Assembly (NCBI GenBank): GCA_958295985.1
Contig: OY282432.1
Span: forward strand, 1,827,282-1,859,281
DNA: 32,000 nucleotides
DNA from: an uncultured Candidatus Binatia bacterium
GTDB lineage: Bacteria; Desulfobacterota; Binatia; UBA9968; JAJDTQ01
Reading direction: 5' to 3'
Shown here in pieces: positions 29-24,887 of the stretch (its first letter is position 1; the number at the start of each line of letters is the position of its first letter). A program made the position numbers and the translations under genes. Under the pieces are notes generated by a model that made no database searches, was not told the DNA's origin, and saw nothing but the letters and a program-made list of their open reading frames with translations.

Positions 29-1168
29 CTACCCGGTAAACTCGAGAACGTCCAGCCCCGCCAAGCGGTCCAGCAGGTACAACAAGCCGCTGGATCGATC
101 GAGGAACACGTCGTTGCTCTGCACGATGGAGGCGCCCCGGCCGGGATCGGGCATGTAGTAGCCGATCTCCCGGGGACGGTAGGGGTCGCTGATGTCCACG
201 GCGCGGAGGCCGCCGGCGAACCAGGTGACGAAGATGGTGTTGCCCTGGACCTGTTCCTGCGGCTGATGGGAGCCGAACCATTCCTCGGGGTTGAACGGCT
301 CGTCGTTGGGCACCCGGAAGGTGGCGATGGGGACGGGTCGCGTCTCGTCGGTGATGTCGACTACCCACATGAAGGCGTTGGGCGCCGGGGCCAGGCGGTC
401 CACCACTTCCTCGTCCGTCACCACCATCAGCTTCCGACCCTGGATGGTTTGGGGAATGGGCAGGGCGGTATGGGTGGGGCACGGGTAGGGCGGGCTCCAG
501 TCCAGGCCGCTCACCATGCGCGGGCGAGTCAGCTCCGATATGTCGAGAATGACCAGACCGCCGTGCCAGTAGCTCACGTAGAGCCGGTCCCCCAGCCGGA
601 GCGGGTGGTGGCAGCGGTGCCGGACTCCCTGCCACGTCGGGGTTTCCCCGCCCGCGGTCCACTGTCCGGGGAGCCACCACCGCGACACCTCCTCGGGTCG
701 GGACGGGTCCTTCAGGTCCAGGATCATCACGATGTTTCCGACGTAGCCCTCCACCTGCGGCGAGAAATAGGCGTAGTCTCCGTCGAAGTCGAAGCGGTGA
801 ACGCCGGTGCCCGCGGCCCGGTAGAAGCCGATCTCACGGGGATGGGCCTTGTCGGCGACGTCGAAGATCTTGAGTCCGCCCTGAAAGGGGTCCTTCGCCG
901 CGCCGCCGTAGCGTTCGTAGTTCACCAGCATGACGTCGCCGTGGACCCTGACCTTGTGCGAGTGGGTCCCCTCGGGGACTTCCAGGTGCGATACCACCCT
1001 GGGGCTCCGTGAGTCGGAAACGTCCAGGATCGAAGTGCCGTGGGGCGGTTCCAGGTGTCCGACGTAGGCGTAGTGTCCCTGCACCACGACCTGGCCGCCG
1101 CCCGGGATGTCGATGTGCCCCAACCGCTTGAAACCTTTGCTGGTGCCGTAGGGTTCACGTTGTGTCAT
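29..1168 (-). CDS. LVIVD-repeat beta-propeller protein, no obvious signal peptide
   Basis: 379-aa ORF. ATG at 1168 is preceded by GGAGG. About 7 recurring strand+turn motifs (SILDVSDSRSP, LKIFDVADKAHP, VMILDLKDPSRP, LVILDISELTRP, MWVVDITDETRP, LRAVDISDPYRP, LYLLDRLAGLDV) are typical of LVIVD-type propeller repeats. It starts 37 nt downstream of the preceding gene on the same strand. Confidence 0.75.
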   Translation of the reverse strand: MTQREPYGTSKGFKRLGHIDIPGGGQVVVQGHYAYVGHLEPPHGTSILDVSDSRSPRVVSHLEVPEGTHSHKVRVHGDVMLVNYERYGGAAKDPFQGGLKIFDVADKAHPREIGFYRAAGTGVHRFDFDGDYAYFSPQVEGYVGNIVMILDLKDPSRPEEVSRWWLPGQWTAGGETPTWQGVRHRCHHPLRLGDRLYVSYWHGGLVILDISELTRPRMVSGLDWSPPYPCPTHTALPIPQTIQGRKLMVVTDEEVVDRLAPAPNAFMWVVDITDETRPVPIATFRVPNDEPFNPEEWFGSHQPQEQVQGNTIFVTWFAGGLRAVDISDPYRPREIGYYMPDPGRGASIVQSNDVFLDRSSGLLYLLDRLAGLDVLEFTG

Positions 1169-1205
1169 GACGGGCCTCCGTGAAGGTTGAGCGTCCGCGA
1201 TGCCG

Positions 1206-2312
1206 TCAGGATTTGCGCGCCAGCGCGGCTACCACGCCGCCGCTGGGCGGACCCTGGTGCTCCGCGCCCGCGGACACGTAGCACATGGTGTCCCCGGTGA
1301 CCGAGGCGACCACGGCGTTGACCGCGCCGCGAATGTGCCGCGTATAGTTGATGTCCGAGTCCTCGAACATGACGTGGCGCCGTCCCCGGGTGTCCCCGGA
1401 CGGATCTGGTTCGCACTTCACGAACACGTTCACGAGCCGGTCCTGGTCCTGCGCCGACAACTCGCCGTCGACCTGGAGACCCACCTTGCGGAGAGCCTGT
1501 CTCACGGCCGCCGCGTCGATGGCGTCCTTCATCACCGCGTGATCGATGATGAGGTCGCTGGCGGACCGCGGCGAGTTGCCGAGGACGATGATCTCGCAGT
1601 TCATCAGCTCGATGCCGGAAGAGGCCGAGGCCACGTTGGAGAAGACGGCCAGGTCCTGCCCAATAACCTCTTCGCCGACGTCTCCTTCCTCGATCTCGCC
1701 GGTGGCCATGCCGATGCCCAGGGCGGCGACGCTCCTGGCGTAGGACATGGACTTGTAGGTGTCGGTGGTGACCACGCCGCGGTTGCGCGCGTAGGCGTCC
1801 TTGATGCGCTCGGTGGTCAGGGCGCCGGTCTTGATCTGGACGAAGTGGATGTCCGAGGGATCGTCGATGCCGGCGTCCTGAATGGCCGCCCTCACCCCCT
1901 CGGCCGCGGACAGGACGTGCGGCATGGTGCCGAATTCCTCGGGCGTCATGTCGCGGGTATAGGCGGTGCCCACGGTAAAGCCCTTCTCGCCGTTGCCGGC
2001 GCCATCGCCGCCCGGTTCCTTCACGAAGATGGTGGCGTGTGGGCTCATCAAACCTTCGGTGCCGCCGGACCAGATGATCGGTACCTTTTTGGCGATGTCG
2101 CTCATGGTCAGTCCCGATTTTTCCGCGATCAGCAATTGAAAACACTGGGTCGCCAGAGCCCGGGTGTAGTCGTTGACGCCGCCGTTGCCCTCGGTCTTGC
2201 CCAGGATCGCCGCCACGTGCTGCGCCTGGAAAGCTCCCGCGTCCAGGAGCCTTCGTGCTTCCGACACGTCATCGGGCGCGCCCATCCCCACCTTGAATGC
2301 GGTTACCTTCAT
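1206..2312 (-). CDS. ring-opening amidohydrolase, cyanuric acid amidohydrolase (AtzD/TrzD)/barbiturase family
   Basis: Start trimmed from the 427-aa track ORF to the internal ATG at 2312 (MKVTAFKVGM...), which is preceded by AAGGAG. The family-typical motifs GKTEGNGGVNDYTRA and SGGTEGLMSPH are present. Length of 368 aa fits the family. Confidence 0.85.
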   Translation of the reverse strand: MKVTAFKVGMGAPDDVSEARRLLDAGAFQAQHVAAILGKTEGNGGVNDYTRALATQCFQLLIAEKSGLTMSDIAKKVPIIWSGGTEGLMSPHATIFVKEPGGDGAGNGEKGFTVGTAYTRDMTPEEFGTMPHVLSAAEGVRAAIQDAGIDDPSDIHFVQIKTGALTTERIKDAYARNRGVVTTDTYKSMSYARSVAALGIGMATGEIEEGDVGEEVIGQDLAVFSNVASASSGIELMNCEIIVLGNSPRSASDLIIDHAVMKDAIDAAAVRQALRKVGLQVDGELSAQDQDRLVNVFVKCEPDPSGDTRGRRHVMFEDSDINYTRHIRGAVNAVVASVTGDTMCYVSAGAEHQGPPSGGVVAALARKS

Positions 2313-2340
2313 GAGTTCACTCCTTGTCGGGTTTCGCGAC

Positions 2341-3756
2341 TTATTTGCCGTCCCGGAAACGGCGGGCCAACGCGGCGACGGCCTGTTCCATGCATGCCAG
2401 CGGTGCCCGGGTGACGCCCGCCCCGATCTGGCCGACGCCGGCCTGCCGGTGGGCGATGCCGGTGTTGATGACCGGCGCGATGCCGGCATCGACGCACTTG
2501 CGCACGTCGATGCCGGCGGGAGTGCCCTGGAAGTCCAGGACCGGCAAGGTCAATTCGGGGTTCCTTCCCAGGGTGATGTGCCTCATTTCGGACGTGGCAC
2601 CGAGGGCGTCGGCGGCGGAGCCGCCCACGAACTTCACGATGGCCGGAGACGCGGCCATGGCGAAGCCGCCGATGCCGGCGGTCTCGGTGATGGCGCTGTC
2701 GCCCAGGTCGGGCGCGGCGTCGTCCACGCTGTATCCCGCGAAGAAGAGTCCGTGGACCCGCGGCGCCGGGGCAGTGAACCATTGGTCCCCCGTGCCGCTG
2801 ACCCGGATGCCGAACTCCACTCCGTTGCGCGCCATGGCGGTGACCATGCTGCTGCCCGGGACGCCGTGGGCCGCGTCCAGCATGGCTTTGCAGGCGGCCA
2901 TGGAAAGGTTCAGAAAGAAGTGGTCGTTGCCGCTGATGAAGCGCACGGTCTCGGCGATGCGGGCTTGCGGCGCGCCGGTCTCCAGCAGGGCCGGCAGAAG
3001 CGCACGGAGCAGCAGGGAAGAGGCCGCGACGTTACGGTTGTGGACCTCGTCGCCCATGTGCAGCGCCTGCGCCATCAGGGGTTTGAGCGACAGTCCTCCA
3101 TGGTTTTCCAGCGCCGCCTTCAGGGTCGGCGCCAGCACGCGCTCCATCCATCGGAGCCGCTTCAGCACCTCGGGATCATAGGCGCCCATGCGCAGCACTT
3201 TGCCGAGCCCCTCGTTGAGGTTGCAGTAGGTGGCGTGGCCGTGCTCGGAGTCGCGCACGGTCCACACCGGCATGGACGGGCTGGTGACGCCGGCCATGGG
3301 GCCGACGCAGGCGTGATGGTGGTTCGGCTCGAAGACGATCTCGCCGCCGGCTGCCAGCGCCCGGGCGCCGTCCGGGTCCTCGGCCCACCCCTCGAGCAGG
3401 ATCGCACCGGTCACCGCTCCCTGCATGGGGCCGCACATGCGCTCCCACGCCACCGGCGGACCGGCGTGGAGGATCATGCGCTCCCCCATTCCCGGGACGT
3501 CGTGTCGTGCCGTACCGATCCCCTCCAGCACCGGCTGCGCGTTCAGGTACGCGGAGAACGCGCTGCCATTGGCCCGCTCCATGGCCGCAAGGTTGACGAG
3601 GGAGGCGAGGGCGGCGCCGATTTCGCTGTTCCCGGCCGCGGGCGGACGCCAATCGGTCCGTTGCACGGCGCCGCCGGCAGCGTCGATGGAGTCCGCAAAG
3701 ACCTCGAGGCCGACGTTGACGACCCGGAGTGTGTCGCTGAACAAAGGCTCGATCAT
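2341..3756 (-). CDS. DUF1116 (YlbE-like) protein, partner of FdrA
   Basis: Start trimmed from the 684-aa track ORF to the ATG at 3756 (MIEPLFSDTLRVVNVG...). This ATG overlaps the fdrA stop as ATGA (3753-3756). The upstream part of the track ORF is R/P/G-rich out-of-frame read-through of fdrA. The sequence resembles YlbE/DUF1116 proteins that accompany FdrA. Confidence 0.8.
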   Translation of the reverse strand: MIEPLFSDTLRVVNVGLEVFADSIDAAGGAVQRTDWRPPAAGNSEIGAALASLVNLAAMERANGSAFSAYLNAQPVLEGIGTARHDVPGMGERMILHAGPPVAWERMCGPMQGAVTGAILLEGWAEDPDGARALAAGGEIVFEPNHHHACVGPMAGVTSPSMPVWTVRDSEHGHATYCNLNEGLGKVLRMGAYDPEVLKRLRWMERVLAPTLKAALENHGGLSLKPLMAQALHMGDEVHNRNVAASSLLLRALLPALLETGAPQARIAETVRFISGNDHFFLNLSMAACKAMLDAAHGVPGSSMVTAMARNGVEFGIRVSGTGDQWFTAPAPRVHGLFFAGYSVDDAAPDLGDSAITETAGIGGFAMAASPAIVKFVGGSAADALGATSEMRHITLGRNPELTLPVLDFQGTPAGIDVRKCVDAGIAPVINTGIAHRQAGVGQIGAGVTRAPLACMEQAVAALARRFRDGK

Positions 3757-5357
3757 GTGCCTGTCGCCTTGCTGCGCCGTCGTGGTCCTTCCGGCTTCTC
3801 GTGTCGTTCGTTCCGCGCGAGCTCCAGTGCAATCCGGACGGCCTCGGCGTTGCTGCGGCCCAGGATCACTCCCGCCTCCTCCAAACCGAATTGCTGTTGC
3901 GTCGCGTTCTGTGGGTCGTCTGGGGTCCCGCACACGGATGCCGCGAACAGGAGCCGTCTCCCGGCTCTCTCCGCTACTCGCCGCGCTTTCCGGATGGCCG
4001 GCGTGAGGGCGCCCGCCGGGTCGTGGTGGGCGCCGTAGCCCAGCACCACGTCCAGGAGAACCACGGCCACCTCCGGGTCGGCGGCTTCGTGCAGGATGCG
4101 TTCGCCGCGCAGACGAGGATCGATCATCGGATGCGGGCGTCCGCGGGTCAGACGAGCGTCGCCGAGGTCCACGACGGTGTGTCCCCGGCTTTTCCAGATA
4201 TCGTCCAGGGAGGGCGGCATGGAAGTATTGCTGTAGACCGGGCCAACTGTCTCCCGCATTAGCTGGACGGCCTCGGCGGCCAGCGACCCGCCGCTGTAGA
4301 GCCCACGGATGAACCGTTGGGTGGGCGTCTTTGGATGGCCGGCATCCGGGAGCCTGCGGTGCGATGGGATCCTGTCTATGGGTTGGGTATCCCATGAGTA
4401 GGGAATGCCCTGGGACAGGGCCACCGCCCGGCGGGCGACCTCCTCCAGGGTCCGTGCCGAGACGATTCCCGGTGCGGGCTCGGTGAACGGGGCCGCCCCG
4501 AGAAAATTCACCACTACCGGTTTGCCGGCGCGCCCGGCCCGCTCGAGGATCCGGGCAGCCACCTCCGTCTCCGGAGGTTTGGAGACCACGACGATGACAC
4601 GTGTGGAGGGGTCTTGGGCCAGCGCGTTCAGGGCCTGCAGGGTCGCTGCGCCGCCGACGGCCCGGGAGAGGTCCCGTCCGCCGGTTCCAATGACCTGAGA
4701 GACGCCGGCACCGTGTCGATGGATGAGCGTGGAGACTTCCTGAAGGCCGGTGCCGGAGGCGCCGACGCAGCCGATGTCGCCGCGCCGCACCACGTTGGCG
4801 AAGCCCAACGGAACGCCGTTGATGATGGCCGTGCCGCAGTCCGGGCCCATGACGAGAAGGTCGTTGGCGGCGGCGTACCGCTTGAGCGCGACCTCGTCCG
4901 CTTCCGCCACGTCGGCGCTGAACAGCATGACATGGAGCCCCAGCCGCAAGGCCTTCAGAGCCTCGGCGGCAGCATAGTCGCCCGGCACCGAGATGAGCGC
5001 CAGATTGGCGTTCGTGTCTTGCAGGCTCATGGCCAAGCTGCGCGGTAAGCGGGTGTCTGCGCTCCCGGAGGCGCGGGATGCCGGGGAGCCCCGGTGCAGC
5101 TCTTCCGCAAGCGTGGCGAAGGCCTGCTCTAGTATGGGGGTTTCGTCACCGCGGATGATGACGAGAACGTCGGCGGCGCCGGCTTCCGGATGACCCGTCA
5201 ACAGCCCCGCGTCCCGCAACAGCGCCCGGTTCCCGTCGGTGGCCATCACCACAGCGGCGGCGTCCACACCGGGCGTTTCCGTCACCCGCGCCGAAAGTTG
5301 CATGAGCGACAAGGAATCGCGGTAGCAATTGCGGATGGCTCTCGTCAGTGTGATCAT
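3753..5357 (-). CDS. fdrA: FdrA-family protein (succinyl-CoA-synthetase-alpha-like / acyl-CoA synthetase FdrA)
   Basis: The N-terminus MITLTRAIRNCYRDSLSLMQLSARVTETPGVDAAAVVMATDGNRALL parallels the E. coli FdrA N-terminus (..CFQDSVSLM..VSVMMGTPANKALL). ATG at 5357 is preferred over the TTG at 5426 used by the track. The gene is translationally coupled to the next gene. Confidence 0.85.
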   Translation of the reverse strand: MITLTRAIRNCYRDSLSLMQLSARVTETPGVDAAAVVMATDGNRALLRDAGLLTGHPEAGAADVLVIIRGDETPILEQAFATLAEELHRGSPASRASGSADTRLPRSLAMSLQDTNANLALISVPGDYAAAEALKALRLGLHVMLFSADVAEADEVALKRYAAANDLLVMGPDCGTAIINGVPLGFANVVRRGDIGCVGASGTGLQEVSTLIHRHGAGVSQVIGTGGRDLSRAVGGAATLQALNALAQDPSTRVIVVVSKPPETEVAARILERAGRAGKPVVVNFLGAAPFTEPAPGIVSARTLEEVARRAVALSQGIPYSWDTQPIDRIPSHRRLPDAGHPKTPTQRFIRGLYSGGSLAAEAVQLMRETVGPVYSNTSMPPSLDDIWKSRGHTVVDLGDARLTRGRPHPMIDPRLRGERILHEAADPEVAVVLLDVVLGYGAHHDPAGALTPAIRKARRVAERAGRRLLFAASVCGTPDDPQNATQQQFGLEEAGVILGRSNAEAVRIALELARNERHEKPEGPRRRSKATGT

Positions 5358-5526
5358 GTTCAGGTCGGCCGGAGATGGCGCGCTTCGACTTCGGATGAAC
5401 GCCGATTCCTTCTGTGGCCCGGCCAAGGACTCTACTACGAAAACCCTGGAGGGTCCATTTGCGTTGGATTTCGACGACGAAACTCACTGAAACTCGCCCT
5501 TCGAACCAGGGCCACCGGGAGCAACC

Positions 5527-6759
5527 ATGAGCGAAACATTCGATCTCTTGATCCAGAGGGCTCGGCTGCGGCGCCGGCCGGGCGCTTTGTATGACATCGC
5601 CGTACGAGCGGGACGAATCGAGGTCATCCAGGAGTCGCCGGGGTTGTCGGCCGCCGTCGTCCTGGATGCGGCGGAGGGTCTCGTGACCGAGCCCTTCGCC
5701 AACCCCCACCTGCATCTCGACAAGGTCTACACGCTGCAGCGTCTGGACGAAGAGTCGTCCCTGCGGGCCTACCACGGTGAGGGAATGAGTAATGCGATGC
5801 ACGCGATCGAGGCAGCGTCGCGGGTCAAGGCGTCTTACCGCCAGGATTGGATCGTCGAGAACGCCAGACGGGCGCTTCGCGCCGCGGCGGTCCACGGCAA
5901 CACCCACATACGGGCTTTCGCCGACGTGGATTCCAAGGCGCGCCTGGAAGGCGTCAAGGCGTTGCTGCAGGTCAGGGAGGAGTTCCGCGGCGTCGTGGAG
6001 TTGCAGGTGGTCGCTTTTCCCCAGGACGGCGTCCTGCGTGAGCCCGGTGCAGCCGACCTGGTGCGGGAGGCGGTGGCCCTCGGCGCGGACGTGGTGGGAG
6101 GCATTCCGTGGATCGAGTACACGGATGCCGCTGCCCTAGAGCACGTGCGCCGGATGTTCGAGATCGCCGTCGCCAATGACCGGCCCGTCTCCATGCTCGT
6201 GGACGACGCCGGCGACCCCGGCTTGCGCACCCTGGAAATGATGGCGGTGAGTGCCATCGAGGTCGGTTGGCAAGGACGCGTCCTCGCCCATCACGCCCGC
6301 GCCATGGCGTTGTACCCGGAGCCCTATTTCCAGAAGCTGGCCGCGCTCCTGCGGCAGGCCGGGATGCCCGTGGTCACCGATCCCCACACCGGCCCGCTCC
6401 ATGCCCGCGTACGTGAGCTCCTGGCCGCCGACATCTGTGTCTGCCTGGGGCAGGACGACATCTCCGACGCCTACTACCCCTTTGGCCGCAACAACATGCT
6501 GGAGGTAGCGTTCCTGGCCGCGCACCTGCTGTGGATGACCACCGAAGACGACATGGAGCGCCTCTACGACATGATCACCGTGGACGCTGCCCGGGCCATG
6601 GGCCTCAACGACTTCCGCCTGGAAGCGGGCGCCTCGGCGGACATGGTCATACTGGACGCGCCGTCTGTGCCGGAAGCCCTGCGACATCACCGGGCGCCGG
6701 TGTACGTCATCCGTAACGGGAAGGCGGTGGACGTCGAGGCGCTGAAGGCCCGGGGGTAG
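5527..6759 (+). CDS. metal-dependent amidohydrolase, cytosine deaminase / AtzC (N-isopropylammelide amidohydrolase)-like
   Basis: 410-aa ORF with GGGAG 6 nt upstream of the ATG. It has the HLHLDK metal-binding motif, LQVVAFPQDG, and DVVGGIPW followed by DDAGD, as in the CodA/AtzC subgroup. It is transcribed divergently from fdrA across a 169-nt spacer. Confidence 0.85.
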   Translation: MSETFDLLIQRARLRRRPGALYDIAVRAGRIEVIQESPGLSAAVVLDAAEGLVTEPFANPHLHLDKVYTLQRLDEESSLRAYHGEGMSNAMHAIEAASRVKASYRQDWIVENARRALRAAAVHGNTHIRAFADVDSKARLEGVKALLQVREEFRGVVELQVVAFPQDGVLREPGAADLVREAVALGADVVGGIPWIEYTDAAALEHVRRMFEIAVANDRPVSMLVDDAGDPGLRTLEMMAVSAIEVGWQGRVLAHHARAMALYPEPYFQKLAALLRQAGMPVVTDPHTGPLHARVRELLAADICVCLGQDDISDAYYPFGRNNMLEVAFLAAHLLWMTTEDDMERLYDMITVDAARAMGLNDFRLEAGASADMVILDAPSVPEALRHHRAPVYVIRNGKAVDVEALKARG

Positions 6760-8573: not shown

Positions 8574-11408
8574 CTACTCCTCCCTCGGCGGGAACTCGAA
8601 CGCGACCTTGCCTTCATCGTCCAGCACAAGCCAGGCGGCGAAGGGCCGGCCGGATTTGGATGAGACGAATTCCGGCAGGAGATCGGTCTTGCCCTCGGTC
8701 AGCAGCTTGGTCATCTGGCTGCGTTCCAGCGGCTGCTCGAGGATGACCGTGCCGGCCTTGAAACGGCACGGCTTCTGCTCCGCCTGGGATTTTTCGCAGA
8801 GGTAGTGCGAGTCCCACTCGAAGATTCGGCCGCCGCACCGGGGGCATTTGCCCAGGGATTCCTGACCCGAGAAGTCCGCCTTGGCCGCTGGCTTGTTGCG
8901 GGCGGCCTGAGCCGTCTTTCTGGCCGGCCGCGGCTCGAACTCGAAGCCCACCTTTCCTTCCTGAATCGCCAGAAACGCCTTGAACGGCCGTCCGGTGCGG
9001 GATGAGACGAAGCCTGGCAGGAGATCGGTCTTGCCCTCCTTCAGCAGCTTGACCATCTGCTCCCGCGCCACTTCCTGCCGGAGAATGATCTTGCCGGAGC
9101 TGAACTCACACGTTCGCGCGTCGCCCACGGCGTTCTCGCACGCGTAGCGCATGGGTAGCTCGAACACGCGCCCGACACACCGGGGGCACTGACCCAAGGG
9201 TTCCTGGCCGGTGAAGTCCGCGCCCTGCTCGGCTTCGCCGTCCCGGGGCTCGTTGCCGAAGTCGAACGCGATCTTGTATTCGGGGGACAGCTTGAGCACG
9301 GCGGCGAACGGCCGACCCTGGCGGCTGCGAAATCCCTGTAGCGGCCCGAGTTGCCCGTCCTCGATCAGCGCCGCGGTCTCCTCGGCGCTCAGCAGCCGCC
9401 CGGCCAGGATCTTGGGCAGGCTAAGGCCGCAACTCATGCACTGGAAGTTCCGATACCGTTCATGCACCTCGCCCTTGCACTTGGGACACGGCGCCGAGAG
9501 GGAGCCGAAGTCCCCCGGGATGGTATCGTGCTCGTACTGGCGCGCCCGGTCCACGATCTGCCGGGTCATTTGGGCGATCTCGCCCATGAACTCGTCGCGG
9601 CTCTTCTTGCCGCCCTGCATCTGGAAGAGCTGGTACTCCCAGTTCCCCGTGAGCTCGGGGCGTGTGAGCTCCCGCACGCCCAAACCGTTCAGCAACTCCA
9701 TGAGCATGAAGGCCTTGGGGGTGGCATGAAGCTCCTTGCCGTCCCGGATGATGTAGTCCTCGTCGATGAGCCCCTCGATGATGGACGCCCGGGTGGCGGA
9801 GGTGCCGAGCCCCTTGCCGGCCATGGCCGCCCGCAGCTCCTCGTCCGTCACCAGGCGGCCGGCCCCTTCCATGGCGCCCAGGAGCGTGGCCTCGGTGAAC
9901 CGGGCCGGCGGCCGGGTCTGGTTCTCCTTGGCTTCGATGCCGAGGGTTTCGACCGGTGTGCCGCGGTCGCCGGCAGAGACGTCCGTGGCGTTGGACGCGC
10001 GAGCGTTCAGGGGCGCCAGTGTCGCCTCGTCGCCCTGTTGCCGGGTGTCCCTGCCGTGGACCTCCAGCCAGCCCGCCTTGACCATGACCTTGCCCGTGGT
10101 CTTGAAGGGCTCGTTTTCCACCCGGGTGATCCGGGTGGTCTCCAGGAACTCGGCGGCGGGGTAGAAGATAGCCAGGAAGCGGCGGGTCACCAGATCGTAG
10201 ATCTTCTGCTCGATCTCGTTCAGGCGCTTGGGCGCCTCGGTGGTGGGGATGATGGCGAAGTGGTCCGAGACCTTGGCATTATTGAAGATGCGCTTGTTGG
10301 GCTGGACCCAGTCCTTCTCCAGGATGGCGCCGGCAAACGGCGCATAGGCAGTGTCCTTGAGCATCCGGAGCGAGTCCTTGACCGTTCCGAGGTAGTCTTC
10401 GGGTAGCGCTCGGGAGTCGGTGCGCGGGTAGGTCAGCACCTTGTGCCGTTCGTACAACGCCTGGGCGATCTGCACGGTACGGTTGGCGCTCAGCCCGAAA
10501 CGGGCGTTGGCCTCGCGTTGAAGGCTCGTGAGGTCGAACAGCGGCGGCGGCATCTGCCGGGTGGGCTTGCTGTCCTCGGTTGCGGCGCCGGTCTTGCCCA
10601 GGCACTTCTCGCGGATGGCCTCGGCCGCGGCCTGCTCCCAGATCCGTTCGGCGCGGGCGTTGGGCTCGCTGTCCTTTTTCCTGAACCTCTCGTCGAACCA
10701 CCGTCCCTGATAGTCGCCGCCCTCCGACCGGAACGCGGCCGTCACTTCCCAGTAAGGTTCGGGCTTGAAGCTGCGTATCGCGGCCTCGCGCTCCACCACG
10801 ATGGCCAGGGTGGGGGTCTGCACGCGGCCCACGGTGGTCTTGTAGAATCCCCCGGGCTTGGAGTTGAACGCGGTCATGGCCCGGGTGCCGTTGATGCCCA
10901 CCAGCCAGTCGGCCTCGGAGCGGCTCAGCGCGGCATCCGCCAAGGGTTGCATTTCCGTGTCCTCGCGAAGCTTGACGAAACCGTTCCGGATGGCGTCGGG
11001 GGTCATGGACTGGAGCCAGAGGCGTTTGATGGGTTTCTTGGCCTTGGCGTGGCGGACGATGTTGCGGAAGATGAGTTCACCTTCCCGTCCGGCGTCGCAG
11101 GCGTTGACCAGGGCGTCCACATCCTTGCGCTTCATCAGCTTGACCAGCAGCTTGAGCCGGGAGGCGGTCTTCTGGATGGGTTTGAGTTCGAAAAAGGGAG
11201 GTATGACCGGCAGGTTGGCGAAGCTCCACTTGCCCCGTGTGGCTTCGACCCCCTCCGGCGGGATCTGCTCCAGCAGATGGCCCACCGCCGATGACAGCAC
11301 GTATTCGTCGCTCTCGTAGTAGTCCTGGTGCCGCTTGAAGCCGCCCAGCGCCTTGGCCACATCCGCGGCCACCGACGGCTTCTCCGCGATGATCAGTGCT
11401 TTAGCCAT
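8574..11408 (-). CDS. topB: DNA topoisomerase III (type IA) with three C-terminal Zn-ribbon + topoisomerase C-terminal-repeat modules
   Basis: 944 aa. TOPRIM N-terminus MAKALIIAEKPSVA...AVGHLLE. Active-site motif LTYPRTDSRALP (Tyr327). The C-terminal 300 aa contain three CPxC...(G)RPF(A/K)A.L.....KV.FEF modules. Confidence 0.95.
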   Translation of the reverse strand: MAKALIIAEKPSVAADVAKALGGFKRHQDYYESDEYVLSSAVGHLLEQIPPEGVEATRGKWSFANLPVIPPFFELKPIQKTASRLKLLVKLMKRKDVDALVNACDAGREGELIFRNIVRHAKAKKPIKRLWLQSMTPDAIRNGFVKLREDTEMQPLADAALSRSEADWLVGINGTRAMTAFNSKPGGFYKTTVGRVQTPTLAIVVEREAAIRSFKPEPYWEVTAAFRSEGGDYQGRWFDERFRKKDSEPNARAERIWEQAAAEAIREKCLGKTGAATEDSKPTRQMPPPLFDLTSLQREANARFGLSANRTVQIAQALYERHKVLTYPRTDSRALPEDYLGTVKDSLRMLKDTAYAPFAGAILEKDWVQPNKRIFNNAKVSDHFAIIPTTEAPKRLNEIEQKIYDLVTRRFLAIFYPAAEFLETTRITRVENEPFKTTGKVMVKAGWLEVHGRDTRQQGDEATLAPLNARASNATDVSAGDRGTPVETLGIEAKENQTRPPARFTEATLLGAMEGAGRLVTDEELRAAMAGKGLGTSATRASIIEGLIDEDYIIRDGKELHATPKAFMLMELLNGLGVRELTRPELTGNWEYQLFQMQGGKKSRDEFMGEIAQMTRQIVDRARQYEHDTIPGDFGSLSAPCPKCKGEVHERYRNFQCMSCGLSLPKILAGRLLSAEETAALIEDGQLGPLQGFRSRQGRPFAAVLKLSPEYKIAFDFGNEPRDGEAEQGADFTGQEPLGQCPRCVGRVFELPMRYACENAVGDARTCEFSSGKIILRQEVAREQMVKLLKEGKTDLLPGFVSSRTGRPFKAFLAIQEGKVGFEFEPRPARKTAQAARNKPAAKADFSGQESLGKCPRCGGRIFEWDSHYLCEKSQAEQKPCRFKAGTVILEQPLERSQMTKLLTEGKTDLLPEFVSSKSGRPFAAWLVLDDEGKVAFEFPPREE

Positions 11409-13876: not shown

Positions 13877-15088
13877 TCACGCGTCGTTCCCGGCCGCGCC
13901 CGGCTCCAGGTGGAACGTCACCCGCACGAATCGGTTACGCTCGTCGTTGACCAGTGTCGGCTCGGTTCCGTTGAAGCGCCTCATGGCGTGGCGCATGGTC
14001 AGCCAGCCTCGCCCGCGCCGCTCCATGAGTCCGCGCACGACCATGGCGTTCGCTATCATTTCGTTGCGGGAGCGCGGAGCGCCACCCATCCGCGCCTGTT
14101 CGACCGTCATGTGGTTCGGCAACGCGCCGGGGCTCGTCACCACGATGCGGTCGTCGAATACTTCCAGCAGGACCTGAGATCCAGTGATGGCGTAGTCCCG
14201 GTGGATGACCGCGTTGACAAGCGCCTCGCGCAGCACGTCCTCCGGCAGCGGCGGAACGTCTCGGCGGTAGAGTCCCTGATAGATTTCTCGCCGGCCCAGG
14301 CTGCGAAACCATCCCATCGCACGATTCACCTGATCTTCAAGGCGCCCCTTTCCCTCTCCAGCGCTCAACACGTCGGCCGCTTGGTCGGCGCCGCCGTACA
14401 GCGCGCATTGCACGAACAGACTCAGGGTGTGCGGATACGCCTGCGGGTCGCGCCCGAACACCATCAGCCCATACAGCGTGGGGCGAAGCACGCCGTCCAG
14501 TTCGTCAACGATGCTGGCGTTGCGCAGGTCGTCCTCGCGTGCCGGCTGCGGTGCCTGCTCGGTGTCCAGTCCCTGCGCCCGCATGAAGGTGCGCACTGCG
14601 CTGACGTCGATGTCGTCCAGGGTCGCGGATGGCACGACCTGTTTTTCGGTGAGGACGAACCCGAAAGCGTTCATCAACTCTTGAAGCTCGGACGGAGACG
14701 GCGCCACCGTCGCCCGGCCTCGCCGAATCCAGAACCGGCCGTCATAAGCGAACGGCTCGTAGCCCCGTTGGTGGCGATGCACGTCGATCCAGTGCATCCA
14801 ACCGCTACTGGTCTGGTATCTTCCGCATTGCGCGGTGACCGGCTTACCGCAGCCGGTATGCAGCAGGCTCGTCAACCGTTCCTGAACGGCCTCGGGATCT
14901 GCGTGCACTCCGACAATGGCCCTGGTAGCGTCTTCAACGCCGAGCACGATAAGGCCGCCCTCGCCGTTCGCGAACGCGCACAGCGTCTTGCCGACGCCCC
15001 GCAAGTCACTGACCCCACGCTTGAACTCGGTGCGAGCGTCTTCTCCGGCGGCGATGCGTCGTTCGACTTCAGGCCATTCCATCGGCAT
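13877..15088 (-). CDS. AlbA_2 (Schlafen-like divergent AAA) + HATPase_c_4 domain protein (often mis-annotated as RecG-like / transcriptional regulator)
   Basis: 403 aa. The N-terminus E..TEFKRG....GVGKTLCAFANGEGGLIVLGV is typical of AlbA_2. The C-terminus LREALVNAVIHRDYAITGSQVLLEVFDDRIVVTSPGALP is typical of HATPase_c_4. AGGAA precedes the ATG at 15088. Confidence 0.85.
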   Translation of the reverse strand: MPMEWPEVERRIAAGEDARTEFKRGVSDLRGVGKTLCAFANGEGGLIVLGVEDATRAIVGVHADPEAVQERLTSLLHTGCGKPVTAQCGRYQTSSGWMHWIDVHRHQRGYEPFAYDGRFWIRRGRATVAPSPSELQELMNAFGFVLTEKQVVPSATLDDIDVSAVRTFMRAQGLDTEQAPQPAREDDLRNASIVDELDGVLRPTLYGLMVFGRDPQAYPHTLSLFVQCALYGGADQAADVLSAGEGKGRLEDQVNRAMGWFRSLGRREIYQGLYRRDVPPLPEDVLREALVNAVIHRDYAITGSQVLLEVFDDRIVVTSPGALPNHMTVEQARMGGAPRSRNEMIANAMVVRGLMERRGRGWLTMRHAMRRFNGTEPTLVNDERNRFVRVTFHLEPGAAGNDA

Positions 15089-15137
15089 GCGTTCCTGTCT
15101 CGCGAGTCGTCATGGCATGGGTCGATTCTCATCCCGA

Positions 15138-15350
15138 TCATCCCACCCGTGAGTACGGATACTGATTCTTGACGTAAGTGTGGAGAAATTTACCCTTGGA
15201 CGAGGCTTGCATAAATTGACTATGCACATGTTCCGGGACACCGTAGTATTGGTATACTCCTCCGTTCGAGAATTCCACCTCAAGCGTTGACGTACGATCG
15301 TCGTAGCCTATCGCCTTGACATTCGACGACACTACGTTGTGTTTGTCCAT
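15138..15350 (-). CDS. KTSC domain-containing small protein
   Basis: Trimmed to the ATG at 15350 (the track uses the TTG at 15374). The sequence MDKHNVVSSNVKAIGYDDRTSTLEVEFSNGGVYQYYGVPEHVHSQFMQASSKGKFL matches the KTSC pattern (S..I..igYd.....L.V.F..G..Y.Y..VP..v...f..a.SkG.y). Confidence 0.8.
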   Translation of the reverse strand: MDKHNVVSSNVKAIGYDDRTSTLEVEFSNGGVYQYYGVPEHVHSQFMQASSKGKFLHTYVKNQYPYSRVG

Positions 15351-15401
15351 GGCTTGTCGGCGAGCAGACGGCAAACGTCGCGGCTCCAGAGAACCTGAAG
15401 C

Positions 15402-15623
15402 TTAGCCAACCGCAATCTCTACCTGGGTTACGTACACCTCGTTGTGCGGTCGCGGCTCGATCTCCGTGGCGGAAGCTGTCTCGAAGAACAGCTCCAACGC
15501 CTCCTTCAAGTTGCTACGCGCTTCGTCCACGGTGCCGCCCTGGCTGGCTATATCCAACTCGGGGCAGAGTGATACGTAACCATCGCCCTCGCGCTCTATG
15601 ATCGCCGTCAATTGTCTGGTCAT
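15402..15623 (-). CDS. hicB: HicB-family antitoxin (UPF0150, short form without DNA-binding domain)
   Basis: Trimmed to the ATG at 15623, preceded by AGGAGA. The sequence MTRQLTAIIEREGDGYVSLCPELDIASQGGTVDEARSNLKEALELFFE is a textbook HicB N-domain. Confidence 0.85.
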   Translation of the reverse strand: MTRQLTAIIEREGDGYVSLCPELDIASQGGTVDEARSNLKEALELFFETASATEIEPRPHNEVYVTQVEIAVG

Positions 15624-15885
15624 CGTGCTCTCCTGTTTTCCGAATCCGTGCTCCGGCCTTCGACCGTCTCGCGAAGAGCGGGTGGACATCCGTAACATGG
15701 TGCCACCGGCAGGCAGTCCGCCGCAAGAATGCCCTGCTCCACGCATCTTTCTGCCGTGCTGACACGGCGCACCTTTTCCCTCCTCGGCAGCACATTGATG
15801 CGACCCACGGATCAGCGCTCCTTCTCTCAGAGAACATCGCCGGAAACGACACGTCAATCTTGCGCCCGGACTGTTTGAGATCCAT
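15620..15885 (-). pseudogene. hicA-like toxin remnant, frame-disrupted
   Basis: HicA-like pieces lie in three frames: MDLKQSGRKI (ATG 15885), then LREGALIRGSHQ one frame over, then a third frame ending in a TGA that overlaps the hicB ATG (ATGA at 15620-15623). The span is 266 nt, which is not a multiple of 3. Confidence 0.4.
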
Positions 15886-16142
15886 CGGCCCGAGTCGCTT
15901 GGCCTCGACGGCGGCCTCGATCAATTCACTGGGCGAGGAATCCAGGACCGCGGCCCAAGGGGTCTCGAACAGCAGGCGGCCTCGTCGGCCGATGGCGAAT
16001 CCGAGAAGCAGTGCATATAGGGTGGCTGCGGGTGTCGCCCGGACGCGCAGGCGAAGTTTTAACGGATTGAGCTTGCGTTAGCCTGATGGCTGGATTATGA
16101 GGGCATAGTCGTTCAAGGGATAATCTAGCAAAGGAGGTATTC

Positions 16143-21424: not shown

Positions 21425-22492
21425 ATGGCCAAAGCCAAGGTGTTCATATTCGCCCCCAACGACGAGAGCGGCGAGTCTCACAAGAAGCTCGAGGATAACG
21501 GCTGCGAGCTGGTGCTGGGCAAGGCGGGCTGGCATACCCCGCAGGGCGACAACGAGGGCGAGATGTCCGCCATGGCCCAGGGAGTCCAGGCCCTGGTGGG
21601 GACGTCCATCCGCAGCTCTCCCATCAGCAAGGAGATCATGCAGAGCTCCAAGGATCTCCGGGTGGTGGCCAAGTACACCATCGGCGTGGACGACGTGGAC
21701 GTGGAGGCGGCGACGGAGATGGGGGTCATGGTCTGCCACGCGCCGACGGAATCCAACTGGGGCGGGGTGGCCGAGGGCGCCATCACCGGCATGCTGACCA
21801 TGCTCAAGCGCGTGCGCGAACGCGACCGCTACCTGAAATCGGGCGGTGAGTGGCGTGACCTGAGCCTCCAGGGAACCTACGTTGGGTCCCGTGAAATGGA
21901 CGGCTATCCCGGCATCGTCCTCGGCATCATCGGGCTGGGGCGCATCGGCACCCGCATCGCCAAGCTCATGAAGCCCTGGGGCATGAGGATGATCGCGTGC
22001 GACCCTTACCTGCCGGACGAGAAGTTCGAGGAAGCCGGTGTGGAACGGGTGGACCTGCCGACGCTTCTGCGGGAGTCCGACGTGGTGACCCTCCACGTGG
22101 TCCTCACCAAGGAGACCCGCCACATGATGGGGAAAGAGCAGTTCGCGCAGATGAAGAAGAGCGCCATCTTCATCAACACTTCCCGCGGCTACTGCGTCGA
22201 CGAGCCCGACCTGGCCGAGGCGCTGGGAAACGACGTGATCTCCGGCGCCGTCCTCGACGTCTTCGAGGACGAGCCCCTGTCCATGGAAAGCCCGCTCCGG
22301 AAGCTCGGCGACAAGGTGATCCTCTCCGCCCACATGGTGTCCTCCAACAAGGGGAGCGGGCTTCACCCCGGAGTGGTCTGGGCCACGCAATCCGTCCTGA
22401 CCGCGCTGCGCGGCGAAGTCCCCGACAACGTCTACAACAAGGAGGTCATCGAGCAGTGGAAGAGCCGCTTCGGCGGCAAGAGCCTTCTGTGA
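21425..22492 (+). CDS. D-isomer-specific 2-hydroxyacid dehydrogenase family protein
   Basis: 355 aa with GGGAGGA RBS. NAD-binding motif GIIGLGRIGTRIA is present. INTSRG...D and the catalytic-region motif SAHMVS fit the family. Confidence 0.9.
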   Translation: MAKAKVFIFAPNDESGESHKKLEDNGCELVLGKAGWHTPQGDNEGEMSAMAQGVQALVGTSIRSSPISKEIMQSSKDLRVVAKYTIGVDDVDVEAATEMGVMVCHAPTESNWGGVAEGAITGMLTMLKRVRERDRYLKSGGEWRDLSLQGTYVGSREMDGYPGIVLGIIGLGRIGTRIAKLMKPWGMRMIACDPYLPDEKFEEAGVERVDLPTLLRESDVVTLHVVLTKETRHMMGKEQFAQMKKSAIFINTSRGYCVDEPDLAEALGNDVISGAVLDVFEDEPLSMESPLRKLGDKVILSAHMVSSNKGSGLHPGVVWATQSVLTALRGEVPDNVYNKEVIEQWKSRFGGKSLL

Positions 22493-22598
22493 GGACTGCG
22501 CTGATCCTTCACCGGTTTCGGGAGACGCTTCACCGCGGGGCATGGAGACAAGCGTCCAGGATCCCGAAAACCTCGCCGAGCACGGATCCGGACGGTCT

Positions 22599-23012
22599 TT
22601 ATCGGCATGTTCGAAAATTCAGATAATCCGCTGGCGTCAAGATAGGAACGTCGTGAAACGAAGACATGTCCAGGAGGTCCCGATCCCCCGTGATCAGACA
22701 ATCCGCTTCACCCATCAGCGCTGTCTCAAGCAGCTTGTCGTCATCCGGGTCGCGGCAGCCCAGCTTGGCGCCAGCTATTGGCACCCATTCCGCGACCGCC
22801 TCGAGTTGGGCGAGGTAAACCGCTCTGCCTTCTCGGCCAACATAGCCGTCGAACTTCGGGCGATGGAAACGACTCCGAAGCTCGTTGAAGGTTTCGTCGG
22901 AGAACAGCAGCACCCCGTTCTCCGCCCGTAACGCATCCACGATTGCACGCGGCGGCCCTTGAGGTCGAAGGGCTGCGCTTATCAGAACGTTGGTGTCCAA
23001 ACTAGTAATCAC
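22599..23012 (-). CDS. PIN-domain toxin-like protein (TIGR00305/PIN_3 type), no adjacent antitoxin
   Basis: 137 aa. GTG start immediately after an in-frame TGA. Motifs LDTNVLISAAL, CRDPDDDKLLETAL and CLITGDRDLL are present. Confidence 0.8.
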   Translation of the reverse strand: MITSLDTNVLISAALRPQGPPRAIVDALRAENGVLLFSDETFNELRSRFHRPKFDGYVGREGRAVYLAQLEAVAEWVPIAGAKLGCRDPDDDKLLETALMGEADCLITGDRDLLDMSSFHDVPILTPADYLNFRTCR

Positions 23013-23163
23013 TGTATCTCATGACTCCGCCTCATACACGCGGGGCGGCGCAGATACGTCATAAACTGTTGTATTCCTGCTAGTTATATTCCAATCCTGA
23101 GCCGTCGTAGGGCTTGCATCACCGCCACCGATGCGCTTTAATCCACTCTGATTTGACCCCAGT

Positions 23164-23185
23164 CGCTTTCGATACGCTTACGGTG
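23164..23185. repeat. left copy of a 22-bp direct repeat (candidate attL)
   Basis: cgctttcgatacgcttacggtg matches 25674-25695 at 21/22 positions (16-nt perfect core cgatacgcttacggtg). It lies 49 nt upstream of the integrase-fragment start. Confidence 0.6.
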
Positions 23186-23233
23186 TGCACTTCCGATGCA
23201 GCCCGTAGGCTTCTCGTCTCAGGAGGCAGTGAC

Positions 23234-23980
23234 GTGGCCAGACCCGAGTACCTTAGCCTCTCGAAACGCATTATCGACCGTCTCTCCGTCGATGACAAGG
23301 ACGCCGTGTTCTGGGACCGCGACCTTCCCGGATTCGGCATCCGGGTCTACCCTTCGGGCGCCAAGGTCTACGTCGTGCAGACTCGCGTCTTTGGCCGCTC
23401 CAAGCGCGTCACCGTGGGCCGCCACGGCGAGCTTTCCACCGACCAGGCTCGCAAGGAAGCCGCCCAGATCATCGCCCGCATCAAGGCGGGCGAGTCTGCA
23501 CCCTTGACACCCGCTCGCCGCACAAATCCGGCGATGCAGATCGTCGGCTTCTGCCGTTTCGAGGACCGCGATCCGTTTCCAAGTGAGGGCCTGAGGTTGC
23601 GACGGGAGTTCGGACGCATCATCGGTGACGAACTGCCGGTCCCGCGCGTAGTTGGTCGGCCTGGGACCACGACTACTTTCGAATCGTGGCAGTCTGGAAT
23701 TGCCACCCATCCACATGGAGGGCATGTACCTAGTCACGAAAACCTTCGGTGTCTGGACCGGAAGGAACGCTGTGCGGTGTTTCGGAGGCCAGGGGCTTCG
23801 ACCAAAAAAGCGCCCCGTCTCGGCACCCGTTTCCGCAAGGGCTGCAACGCATCCAAGTGGAAGTACAGAAACGTGCCGATCGGGGCGAAGGTCGAAGGAC
23901 AACAGCCCCCATGGATGAAATCCGCGCACAAAGAACAGATGCCCGCCAGCGGGCCGTTCTGGCACTGCGACAGGCACTAA
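23234..23980 (+). pseudogene. tyrosine integrase remnant: only the N-terminal arm-binding (DUF4102-like) domain is recognisable
   Basis: GTG at 23234 with AGGAGG 7 nt upstream. DKDAVFWDRDLPGFGIRVYPSGAKVYVVQTRVFGRSKRVTVGRHGELSTDQARKEAAQIIARIKAGE is a P4-type integrase N-domain. After about codon 95 the ORF loses all integrase character, and no catalytic R..HxxR..Y region exists in any frame nearby. Confidence 0.65.
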
Positions 23981-24156
23981 AGGTCGCCAGCCCCGGGATC
24001 ACGAAGGAGCGGCGGGCACTCTCGAACGCTCGGACCTTGTGGCCGCGTTCGGCGCGACTCGACAATAGGAGGGCTCGGTCGCCGAGCATCGGCTGTTCGA
24101 CTGGCTGGAAGCGGGCATCTGCTCCGATCACCAACTCATGGTTAAGGTTTGCTGTG

Positions 24157-24831
24157 ATGACGTTCCGAAGGGAGATCTGCAAACTCTGGCACAATAGCGT
24201 CCAGATCGAACGTGAGGTCATATTCGGCCCTCACGACGCCAAATACCGACCGCTCCACTTGGCAGATGACGCAAACACCATGTTCGCGGGATTTGTCGGT
24301 CGCCGTTACAGGACCGGTGCCGGCATTCTCTTGCTCGCCATAAATCCTGGTGGCGGCGGAGATGCATACCGCTCACGAACTGGGGAAGACGAGCATTTCT
24401 ATCCGCTGTTGAGGGCCTTCAAGCGTGCTACGCCGGAGCACGCTCTGGAAGCCTTCGAACGTGTAAACGAAACCTTTGCAGAGATTGTCAGGCGCTGGAA
24501 CGTCTGGAAGATCATCGAGCCAACTCTTGAAGCCGCGGGTAAAGCGCTGGATGAGGCGGCTTACATGAATCTGGTTCCCTATCGAACGCGAGCCGACAAG
24601 ATGCCCCCGGTAGCGGCCCGAAGAACGGCCGTGAAGAGGTTTGTCGAACCGACCATCGACCTCCTTGTCCCCCGGGCAATCGTCGCCTTGGGGAAGAAGG
24701 CAGGGAAGATACAGGAATGTACCTCGCGACCGGATGTACCCATATACTGTGTTCGACGCACTAGGGGCGACACCGATGTCCATGCCGACGCAGTGCAGAT
24801 TCTCGCCGAGATCCGGCGCGCGCTCACTTGA
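24157..24831 (+). CDS. hypothetical protein, possible uracil-DNA-glycosylase-superfamily fold
   Basis: This is the C-terminal 224 aa of the 360-aa track ORF, from MTFRREICKLWHN. AGILLLAINPGGGGD resembles the G(I/M)NPG motif of MUG/SMUG-type UDGs. NLVPYRT and IVALGKKAG resemble later superfamily blocks. The start is uncertain (ATG 23911 is possible). Confidence 0.5.
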   Translation: MTFRREICKLWHNSVQIEREVIFGPHDAKYRPLHLADDANTMFAGFVGRRYRTGAGILLLAINPGGGGDAYRSRTGEDEHFYPLLRAFKRATPEHALEAFERVNETFAEIVRRWNVWKIIEPTLEAAGKALDEAAYMNLVPYRTRADKMPPVAARRTAVKRFVEPTIDLLVPRAIVALGKKAGKIQECTSRPDVPIYCVRRTRGDTDVHADAVQILAEIRRALT

Positions 24832-24887
24832 TTTTCAAGAGACTGGTACTCGGGCAACCGCGTCTTTACACGTAACCTCTCGGTCGA

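Follow-up and report, generated by a model that had tools for sequence, protein, structure and literature searches.

In the leftmost 6.8 kb (~66% GC) of a 32-kb stretch of DNA from an uncultured Candidatus Binatia bacterium, hereafter the window, four genes on the minus strand appear to form an operon with which this Binatia-type soil bacterium would break down a trioxo N-heterocycle, cyanuric acid being the likeliest. The operon joins homologues of two subunits of the Escherichia coli oxamate carbamoyltransferase (OXTCase), AllF (FdrA) and AllG (YlbE, DUF1116), to an AtzD/TrzD-family amidohydrolase with the active site of a cyanuric acid hydrolase (CAH). We propose that the AllF/AllG pair (AllFG) acts on the ring-opened carbamoyl-urea of this pathway and yields carbamoyl phosphate, a proposal to which we give about even credence. 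All of the parts come from known families, and it is their combination that implies a pathway variant yielding carbamoyl phosphate. The first-pass annotation of this DNA had been aware of no described pathway with this combination, and in the full text of the literature searched we likewise found no description of AllFG, FdrA or DUF1116 paired with a cyanuric acid hydrolase or a barbiturase. The four genes, in the order of transcription, are:

3753-5357, minus strand: allF/fdrA homologue, 534 aa, ATG at 5357 and TGA at 3755-3753
2341-3756, minus strand: allG/ylbE (DUF1116) homologue, 471 aa, ATG at 3756-3754 and stop codon at 2343-2341
1206-2312, minus strand: AtzD/TrzD-family ring-opening amidohydrolase gene, 368 aa, PF09663, TIGR02714
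29-1168, minus strand: LVIVD-repeat beta-propeller gene, 379 aa, no signal peptide, PF08309

The layout described in the first-pass annotation, with four closely spaced co-directional genes and a divergent amidohydrolase gene, was confirmed on the sequence, and profile searches bore out its FdrA, DUF1116, AtzD-family and LVIVD family calls. The stop codon of allF overlaps the start codon of allG as ATGA. A gap of 28 nt (2340-2313) containing the ribosome-binding site AAGGAG separates allG from the AtzD-family gene, and a gap of 37 nt (1205-1169) containing a GGAGG site separates the latter from the LVIVD gene. The promoter and terminator scan found no terminator-like sites between the four minus-strand genes.

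The AtzD-family protein matches PF09663 over residues 6-366 (457 bits, cut-off 25) as well as TIGR02714 (442 bits, cut-off 153). Its scores against solved relatives were 389 bits for the Moorella CAH (6bum), 378 for TrzD (5t13), 311 for AtzD (4bvq), 297 for barbiturase (5hwe) and 205 for a Frankia enzyme of unknown substrate. The Moorella CAH has three Ser-Lys dyads, each with an Arg (K40/S83/R52, K161/S231/R193 and K299/S347/R328; PMC6557486), and the domain-2 Arg is lost in barbiturases (PMC4051656). We aligned the active sites of the window protein, the Moorella CAH, TrzD, the Rhodococcus barbiturase and the relatives encoded in the loci described below. The three dyads that the first-pass annotation had proposed to check are present: K39/S82, K161/S231 and K299/S347 of the window protein align with K40/S83, K161/S231 and K299/S347 of the Moorella enzyme, and the domain-2 dyad (K161/S231) is invariant in the AtzD family. 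The set of CAH residues is complete (K39, R51, S82, E86, K161, R193, S231, E235, K299, R328, S347 and E351), and the full pattern also occurs in all Binatia, Rokubacteria and L011 relatives of the enzyme. The barbiturase signature in the alignment consists of D86, N193, K328, V348 and a non-acidic residue at 351 (V, A or M), and at these sites the Rhodococcus and Actinomadura barbiturases and the enzyme of locus L120 differ from the window protein.

A barbiturase assignment of the window enzyme was rejected, since its active-site signature and its scores against solved structures alike indicate a CAH. The first-pass annotation had reasoned from the barbiturase product, 3-oxo-3-ureidopropanoate (ureidomalonate); with R193, R328 and E351 marking a CAH-type active site, the expected product is instead 1-carboxybiuret. 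The conversion of cyanurate to carboxybiuret is established chemistry for enzymes with this active site, and by its sequence the window enzyme is expected to carry it out. The match to the NCBIfam CAH equivalog NF052395 (470 bits, cut-off 360) was rejected as proof of a cyanuric acid substrate, since a control, the true barbiturase orthologue at L059:9971-11080, scored 477 bits. The pipeline is thus likely to label barbiturases as cyanuric acid hydrolases.

Window AllF matches the FdrA model NF004760 (499 bits, cut-off 433) and the Pfam families Ligase_CoA and CoA_binding; its score against the E. coli FdrA structure 3dmy was 274 bits, and it shares 38% identity with AllF of E. coli. By these matches it is the predicted counterpart of the corresponding AllFGH OXTCase subunit, with a succinyl-CoA-synthetase-alpha-like fold. 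Window AllG matches PF06545 (340 bits, cut-off 27), currently named 'Oxamate carbamoyltransferase subunit AllG' in Pfam, scores 429 bits to the uncharacterised structure 3clq, and is 50% identical to E. coli AllG. The protein is strongly conserved, with a mean column identity of 73%. Residues 7-52 of AllG match the C-terminal end (the last ~45 positions) of the E. coli-based FdrA model, so the boundary between the two genes is shifted relative to E. coli, which would be consistent with an obligate complex. In E. coli, AllFGH was purified in 2024 and shown to be the OXTCase, catalyzing oxalurate + Pi <-> oxamate + carbamoyl phosphate, an activity that required the three genes together (Kim & Kim 2024, PMC11326118). 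The first-pass annotation had correctly related FdrA/DUF1116 to this activity, but its word 'linked' is too weak for a proven enzyme.

For the survey of related loci, species-representative genomes were scanned with an alignment of AtzD homologues, and the loci found served as targets of tblastn searches whose queries were the window proteins and AllFGHK of E. coli. A second approach started from the AllG side and covered 80 metagenome AllG loci. ORFs were clustered across loci for neighbourhood comparison; at loci above 70% GC, where GC3-based gene calls were wrong, coordinates were taken from tblastn matches and their enclosing ORFs. Five Binatia-type loci, from soil and in one case from a marine TARA sample, show AllF-AllG-AtzD synteny. 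Both chromosomes of Binatia metagenome-assembled genomes (MAGs) carry AllF and AllG beside the AtzD gene and also keep the LVIVD and CodA-like genes. The marine TARA scaffold has the window order, with a CodA-like gene followed by AllF, AllG, AtzD, LVIVD and DctPQM, and past DctPQM it carries an NMT1-type ABC transporter and an ATZ/TRZ-type amidohydrolase. In the species-representative scan, AllFG also stood beside the AtzD gene in 4/9 Rokubacteria loci and in one alphaproteobacterial MAG. From the AllG side, an AtzD-family gene was next to AllFG in five of the 80 metagenome loci, namely L090 (AllH-AllF-AllG-AtzD-Mo hydroxylase), L120 (AtzD, two ABC-transporter genes, AllF-AllG), L139 (AllF-AllG-AtzD), L141 (BiuH-like, AllK, AllH, AllF, AllG, AtzD) and L142 (AllG-AtzD).

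The proteins at these loci differ in how closely they are related. Between Binatia and Rokubacteria, the AtzD proteins share 71-74% identity, and the AllF and AllG proteins of the Rokubacteria AllFG-AtzD loci are 43-45% and 51-56% identical to those of the window, respectively. Window AllG is nearer to Nitrospira-type AllGs (66-72%) than to those of Rokubacteria. In a neighbour-joining tree of 94 AllG sequences, the AtzD-linked AllGs occupy at least six separate positions, interspersed with other members. Taken with the identity pattern, these scattered positions indicate that the juxtaposition was assembled or retained several times. Since it recurs in many loci of several lineages, the AllF-AllG-AtzD adjacency is far beyond chance. 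The first-pass annotation would have given up its proposal if the adjacency were not conserved, and we found it in related and unrelated genomes alike.

The closest non-Binatia AllGs (Nitrospira-type, loci L087-L089, 66-72% identical to window AllG) lie in a cluster that runs GntR, AllH, AllF, AllG, carbamate kinase, Bmp/ABC transporter, isochorismatase 1, ABC ATPase, isochorismatase 2 and amidase. According to NCBIfam equivalogs, isochorismatase 1 is a biuret amidohydrolase (BiuH; 410 bits, cut-off 370) and the amidase is an allophanate hydrolase (AtzF; 774 bits, cut-off 511), while isochorismatase 2 is a BiuH relative below threshold, as would be expected of a triuret hydrolase (TrtA-like). 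The carbamoyl-phosphate link suggested in the first-pass annotation gains support here, with carbamate kinase next to the nearest AllG relatives and amid biuret, triuret-like and allophanate hydrolase genes. Among the 80 metagenome AllG loci, many of them on short contigs, carbamate kinase occurred at 45, AllH at 36, AtzF-like amidases at 29 and BiuH-like genes at 26, and of the 26 loci flanked by 2.5 kb or more on each side, 20 had an AtzD, BiuH-like or AtzF-like gene. Around ~100 AllFG loci, queries with AllC, AllD and AllE of E. coli gave no allC or allE and a single AllD-like gene. At seven loci (L091, L094, L100, L106, L110, L123 and L126), an allophanate hydrolase gene is divergent from AllF-AllG-carbamate kinase; no AllH was detected there in the sequence at hand, several of these contigs being short. 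In the literature searched, allFGHK beside biuret and triuret genes was noted only in a nitrifier study (PMC12625717).

With CAH, TrtA-like, BiuH and AtzF enzymes as neighbours, the chemistry common to them is the carboxybiuret/biuret/allophanate series. The triuret and cyanuric acid pathways meet at carboxybiuret, which triuret hydrolase and CAH alike form and which decays to biuret with a half-life of ~20 min (PMC7948467). Carboxybiuret, biuret and allophanate each carry the group X-CO-NH-CO-NH2, which OXTCase cleaves in oxalurate.

A similar link to carbamoyl phosphate appears on the barbiturase side. Locus L120 (8-9620) is a tightly packed operon of hydantoinase B, a barbiturase-type AtzD homologue, an ABC ATPase, a permease, AllF and AllG, followed by an NMT1-type binding protein and an amidase-signature enzyme. 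By its gene content it would be the barbiturate counterpart of the window operon, and the combination of a barbiturase-type enzyme with FdrA/DUF1116 that the first-pass annotation had envisaged thus exists there, together with an amidase. Of 27 Streptosporangiales loci (Actinomadura, Spirillospora, Nocardiopsis and others), 24 carry a true barbiturase orthologue (592 bits to 5hwe) ~40 nt downstream of a carbamate kinase gene (NF009007, 281 bits, cut-off 266), and a class I/II aminotransferase gene precedes the pair. The 24 loci are L033, L043, L045, L046, L048, L052, L057-L060, L062-L067, L069, L071, L073, L075-L078 and L080, at ~8950-11080 in each. No AllFG was found within 10 kb of these pairs, and the pairing suggests an undescribed link of barbiturate catabolism with carbamoyl phosphate. 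Together, L120 and the Streptosporangiales pairs tie ring-opened ureides to carbamoyl-phosphate metabolism.

On this basis we propose the following pathway. In step 1, the AtzD-family enzyme would open the ring hydrolytically to 1-carboxybiuret (-OOC-NH-CO-NH-CO-NH2). In step 2, AllF/AllG with phosphate would attack the terminal carbamoyl of the ring-opened acyl-urea, giving carbamoyl phosphate and allophanate, and a possible second round by AllF/AllG would convert allophanate to carbamate and carbamoyl phosphate. This phosphorolysis would stand in for the hydrolytic or decarboxylating steps of the described pathways (AtzEG/AtzH, TrtB, BiuH), and the carbamoyl phosphate would enter arginine or pyrimidine synthesis, or give ATP if a carbamate kinase is present. 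An attack by phosphate on an activated acyl group, yielding an acyl phosphate, would fit the predicted AllF fold. Since carboxybiuret is unstable, a tight coupling of AllFG with CAH would make sense. From the gene context we infer the substrate of AllFG, the direction of its reaction and its activity without AllH; that carboxybiuret is the specific substrate is less certain than the general claim of action on a ring-opened carbamoyl-urea. In its boldest form, CAH with AllF/AllG would be a self-sufficient three-gene module that, through the series carboxybiuret, allophanate and carbamate, performs one hydrolysis and two phosphorolyses and releases two carbamoyl phosphates per ring without BiuH, AtzE/G/H, AtzF or AllH, the environmental AllFG clade then being a general 'ureide phosphorylase'. 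This extension we consider unlikely.

The search for the remaining OXTCase genes bears directly on the proposal. AllH was searched by tblastn with four queries, namely E. coli YlbF, which alone was judged too insensitive, and three Nitrospira-type AllH sequences; carbamate kinase was searched by tblastn with two AllK queries, and Pfam scans covered the major ORFs of the window. As the first-pass annotation had stated, neither AllH (DUF2877, PF11392) nor a carbamate kinase or AA_kinase gene was found in the 32-kb window by the Pfam scans and tblastn. AllH was also absent from the Pfam tables of L001, L083 and L086. Among the AtzD-linked AllFG loci, it is present in two metagenome loci (L090 and L141), tblastn finding none at the others, and it is missing from the locus in 7/26 well-flanked relatives. 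AllF-AllG-carbamate kinase is kept without AllH in the well-flanked loci L103, L106, L116, L128 and L137, and in L128 there is no space for AllH between BiuH and AllF. Such loci raise the prospect that AllH may be dispensable or encoded elsewhere in the genome.

Several observations speak for the proposed pathway. The operon is tight, with ribosome-binding sites and no internal terminator; the Ser-Lys-Arg triads of CAH are complete; the adjacency has arisen or persisted repeatedly and independently; and the clade is embedded among triuret, biuret and allophanate genes. The near-absence of allantoin genes, the L120 operon and the actinomycete barbiturase-carbamate kinase pairs are consistent with it. 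Other points weigh against it. The E. coli OXTCase requires AllH and the locus has none; tblastn likewise gave no AllH within ~10 kb at the Binatia, Rokubacteria and L011 loci, and neither a carbamate kinase nor an allophanate hydrolase lies nearby in the Binatia loci. The support, in which several lines agree, is of the comparative-genomic, gene-context kind; the neighbour-joining tree is crude, and the metagenome contigs are short. The authors of the nitrifier MAG study read allFGHK beside biuH, trtA and atzF as a separate, neighbouring oxalurate pathway (PMC12625717). Moreover, AllFG is present in only 4/11 Rokubacteria/Methylomirabilota loci (L004-L010, L012, L053, L084 and L085) and is therefore optional there. 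The constant partner of the AtzD gene in these loci is not AllFG but a CoxL-like 'CODH group 5' Mo-hydroxylase large subunit (NF040766, 1092 bits, cut-off 950), encoded directly upstream of the CAH-type gene in all 11. A small CDA-fold deaminase often adjoins this pair, AllFG is inserted before or after the hydroxylase gene, and the AllFG-less loci have an N-carbamoyl-amidase-like CN-hydrolase instead. This pattern hints at a ring substrate made by deamination and hydroxylation.

The main rival explanation takes AllF/AllG as an ordinary oxalurate-specific OXTCase that shares an operon with CAH as part of a nitrogen-scavenging regulon, the two running parallel but unconnected reactions. Its rationale is that oxidation of urate and purines yields oxalurate, triuret and cyanuric acid side by side, and chemical oxidation of uric acid can indeed give triuret as well as cyanuric acid (PMC7948467). 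The OXTCase proven in E. coli is a homologue (PMC11326118), the AllGs of all clades share 50% identity with that of E. coli, the nitrifier study chose the same reading (PMC12625717), and the TRAP transporter downstream would suit a carboxylate such as oxalurate. Set against this, the ~100 AllFG loci lack the allantoin and ureidoglycolate genes that would make oxalurate, and no oxamate-handling enzyme is present. AllFG recurs in tight operons with the enzymes of one pathway (CAH, barbiturase-type, BiuH, TrtA-like, AtzF), minimal units of AtzF with AllF-AllG-AllK exist, and the Binatia operon holds no other enzyme for the CAH product. We hold the oxalurate explanation to be unlikely, if still a serious contender.

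A different rival starts from the missing AllH: without it, AllF/AllG might be inactive, or might perform a CoA- or ATP-dependent activation like succinyl-CoA synthetase, for example of malonamate, malonate or allophanate. Such activation would suit the succinyl-CoA synthetase alpha fold of AllF with its Ligase_CoA and CoA_binding domains, the need for all three subunits in E. coli (PMC11326118), and the lack of AllH in 7/26 well-flanked relatives and in all Binatia, Rokubacteria and L011 loci. However, many loci have a carbamate kinase beside AllH-less AllF-AllG, a sign that the product is carbamoyl phosphate; an AllH gene may lie elsewhere in the genome; and the conservation of AllG (73% mean column identity) in an ATGA-coupled pair argues against decay. 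We rate this rival as quite improbable. It is also conceivable that the AtzD-family enzyme of this clade, which has no characterised member, opens another ring, either barbiturate (formed from cytosine or uracil through the adjacent deaminase and Mo-hydroxylase) or a five-membered trione such as parabanate (with oxalurate as the product), and that AllFG acts on the ring-opened product. In Rokubacteria, the genes of the 71-74% identical relatives sit next to those of a Mo-hydroxylase and a CDA-fold deaminase, an order of deamination, hydroxylation and ring opening that resembles oxidative pyrimidine catabolism, and the NCBIfam CAH equivalog does not separate barbiturases from CAHs. Yet every residue that discriminates the two is of CAH type, barbiturate is a tight inhibitor and not a substrate of characterised CAHs (PMC4051656), the Mo enzyme is the CoxL-like 'group 5' type and not a recognised uracil or xanthine dehydrogenase, and the Binatia operon has no Mo-hydroxylase. 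To this other-ring explanation we assign a small probability.

The proposed cyanuric acid operon can be compared with several known systems. It resembles E. coli allFGHK in its adjacent, translationally coupled AllF (38%) and AllG (50%) homologues and in the class of the proposed substrate, a carboxylate-bearing N-acyl-urea. It differs in having no AllH, no AllK and no allantoin genes nearby, in its ring-opening amidohydrolase partner and shifted AllF/AllG boundary, and in a proposed substrate of carboxybiuret or allophanate rather than oxalurate. With AtzD-AtzEG-AtzH-AtzF of Pseudomonas sp. ADP and AtzD/TrzD-(TrtB)-BiuH-AtzF of Rhizobium and Herbaspirillum it shares a CAH-type first enzyme, whereas AtzE/G/H, TrtB, BiuH and AtzF are absent from the Binatia operon and 10 kb on either side, and AllF/AllG stand in their place. 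The Nitrospira-type allHFGK-bmp/ABC-biuH-trtA-atzF clusters (PMC12625717; L087-L089) likewise have AllFG among carboxybiuret, biuret and allophanate genes; they contain AllH, carbamate kinase and the hydrolases but no CAH, whereas the window has CAH and none of the others. The oxidative pyrimidine pathway of Rhodococcus erythropolis (uracil dehydrogenase, barbiturase, ureidomalonase) uses the same family for ring opening, and L120 and the actinomycete barbiturase-carbamate kinase pairs show a like carbamoyl-phosphate link, but the window has neither the barbiturase signature nor a ureidomalonase or uracil dehydrogenase.

The remaining features of the locus lie upstream of allF:

5527-6759, plus strand: CodA/AtzC-like amidohydrolase gene, 410 aa, divergent, Amidohydro_3, atypical active site
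5358-5526, no strand: divergent intergenic region, 169 bp, with a conserved block, candidate shared promoter/operator

The CodA-like protein scored 193 bits against cytosine deaminase of E. coli and 160 against AtzC, and its best NCBIfam match was a 'cytosine deaminase' subfamily at 275 bits, below the cut-off of 438. It keeps HxH (H61/H63), H256 and D310. The strand-5 metal ligand His214 of CodA is replaced by Leu and the catalytic Glu217 by Asp (VSMLVDDAGD vs IDVHCDEIDD), and a 13-residue loop is deleted relative to CodA. These changes are kept in the Binatia orthologues (window 5527-6759; L083:5503-6738; L086:5295-6521), while more distant homologues retain the His and Glu. Being conserved, they indicate that the protein is probably functional, and they suggest altered chemistry in the Binatia proteins, not decay. 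The first-pass annotation had suggested that this enzyme could feed the pathway as a deaminase of an amino-substituted ring; with the equivalents of His214 and Glu217 gone, that role is doubtful.

In the intergenic region, a block at 5460-5427 (minus strand AAATGGACCCTCC...TTTCGTAGTAGAGTCC) is kept in the window, L001, L083 and L086, while the flanking intergenic sequence diverges. This block may be an operator or promoter element; the promoter scan found no consensus sigma-70 site in it, and no regulator gene adjoins it.

The LVIVD protein (PF08309, 69 bits, cut-off 20) was modelled by AlphaFold as an all-beta propeller (pLDDT 87, pTM 0.88), and the best fold match of the model was the binuclear-metal phosphotriesterase of Sphingobium TCM1 (5hrm; E 3e-15, TM 0.71). 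Across 36 homologues, many His, Asp, Glu and Cys residues do not vary, the His being H38, H69, H71, H124, H187, H188, H233 and H301, and the family is large and well conserved, with >5000 matches at 60-86% identity. From the model and these residues, the protein is probably an uncharacterised metal-dependent hydrolase-like enzyme of N-heterocycle catabolism. Its relatives (e.g. at L170 and L171) adjoin CodA-like amidohydrolases 36-37% identical to that of the window and ATZ/TRZ amidohydrolases with Bmp or NMT1 transporters, in both cases without AllFG or AtzD. A replacement of the absent AllH by the LVIVD protein was considered and rejected, since the family recurs without AllFG/AtzD and the Rokubacteria AllFG-AtzD loci have no LVIVD gene. 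By its recurrent neighbours, the LVIVD gene, which the first-pass annotation had counted among the four co-directional genes, is part of a separate module. The window operon thus has the look of two fused modules, one of amidohydrolase, LVIVD protein and transporter, the other of AllF-AllG-CAH.

The window ends 28 bases past the LVIVD stop codon. The metagenome contig L001, 98.96% identical to the window over 6.7 kb, continues past the LVIVD gene with TRAP transporter genes, partly fragmented in that strain, and beyond them, on the opposite strand, with an acetone-carboxylase-gamma-like gene, hydantoinase B and A, a CN-hydrolase and an amidase. The TRAP DctM gene is in three pieces there (L001:7921-9799), reflecting either a pseudogene or an assembly frameshift. 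Elsewhere in the window, GC falls to 0.585-0.62 at 22000-26000, where an Arm-DNA-binding integrase-like ORF (23114-23977) and a truncated phytochelatin-synthase-like ORF (25016-25498) are found; this stretch may be the remnant of an integrated element. A Schlafen AlbA_2/HATPase_c_4 gene at 13877-15088 on the minus strand adjoins a GC dip of 0.584 (15001-16000) and is unrelated to the operon.

To our knowledge, the described routes for cyanuric acid, triuret and barbiturate rings are all purely hydrolytic and waste the energy of the ureide bond. If the proposed pathway is right, a phosphorolytic branch would conserve this energy, as ATP through carbamate kinase or as input to arginine and pyrimidine synthesis, and, on the boldest form of the proposal, a 'ureide phosphorylase' would let bacteria draw ATP, or carbamoyl phosphate for biosynthesis, from the rings of s-triazine, triuret and barbiturate. 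The large environmental AllF/AllG clade (FdrA/DUF1116), now annotated as acyl-CoA synthetase or unknown, would acquire a function, and new enzymes for cyanuric acid removal would become available. The nitrogen-scavenging potential in nitrifier, Rokubacteria and Binatia metagenomes would then be read differently.

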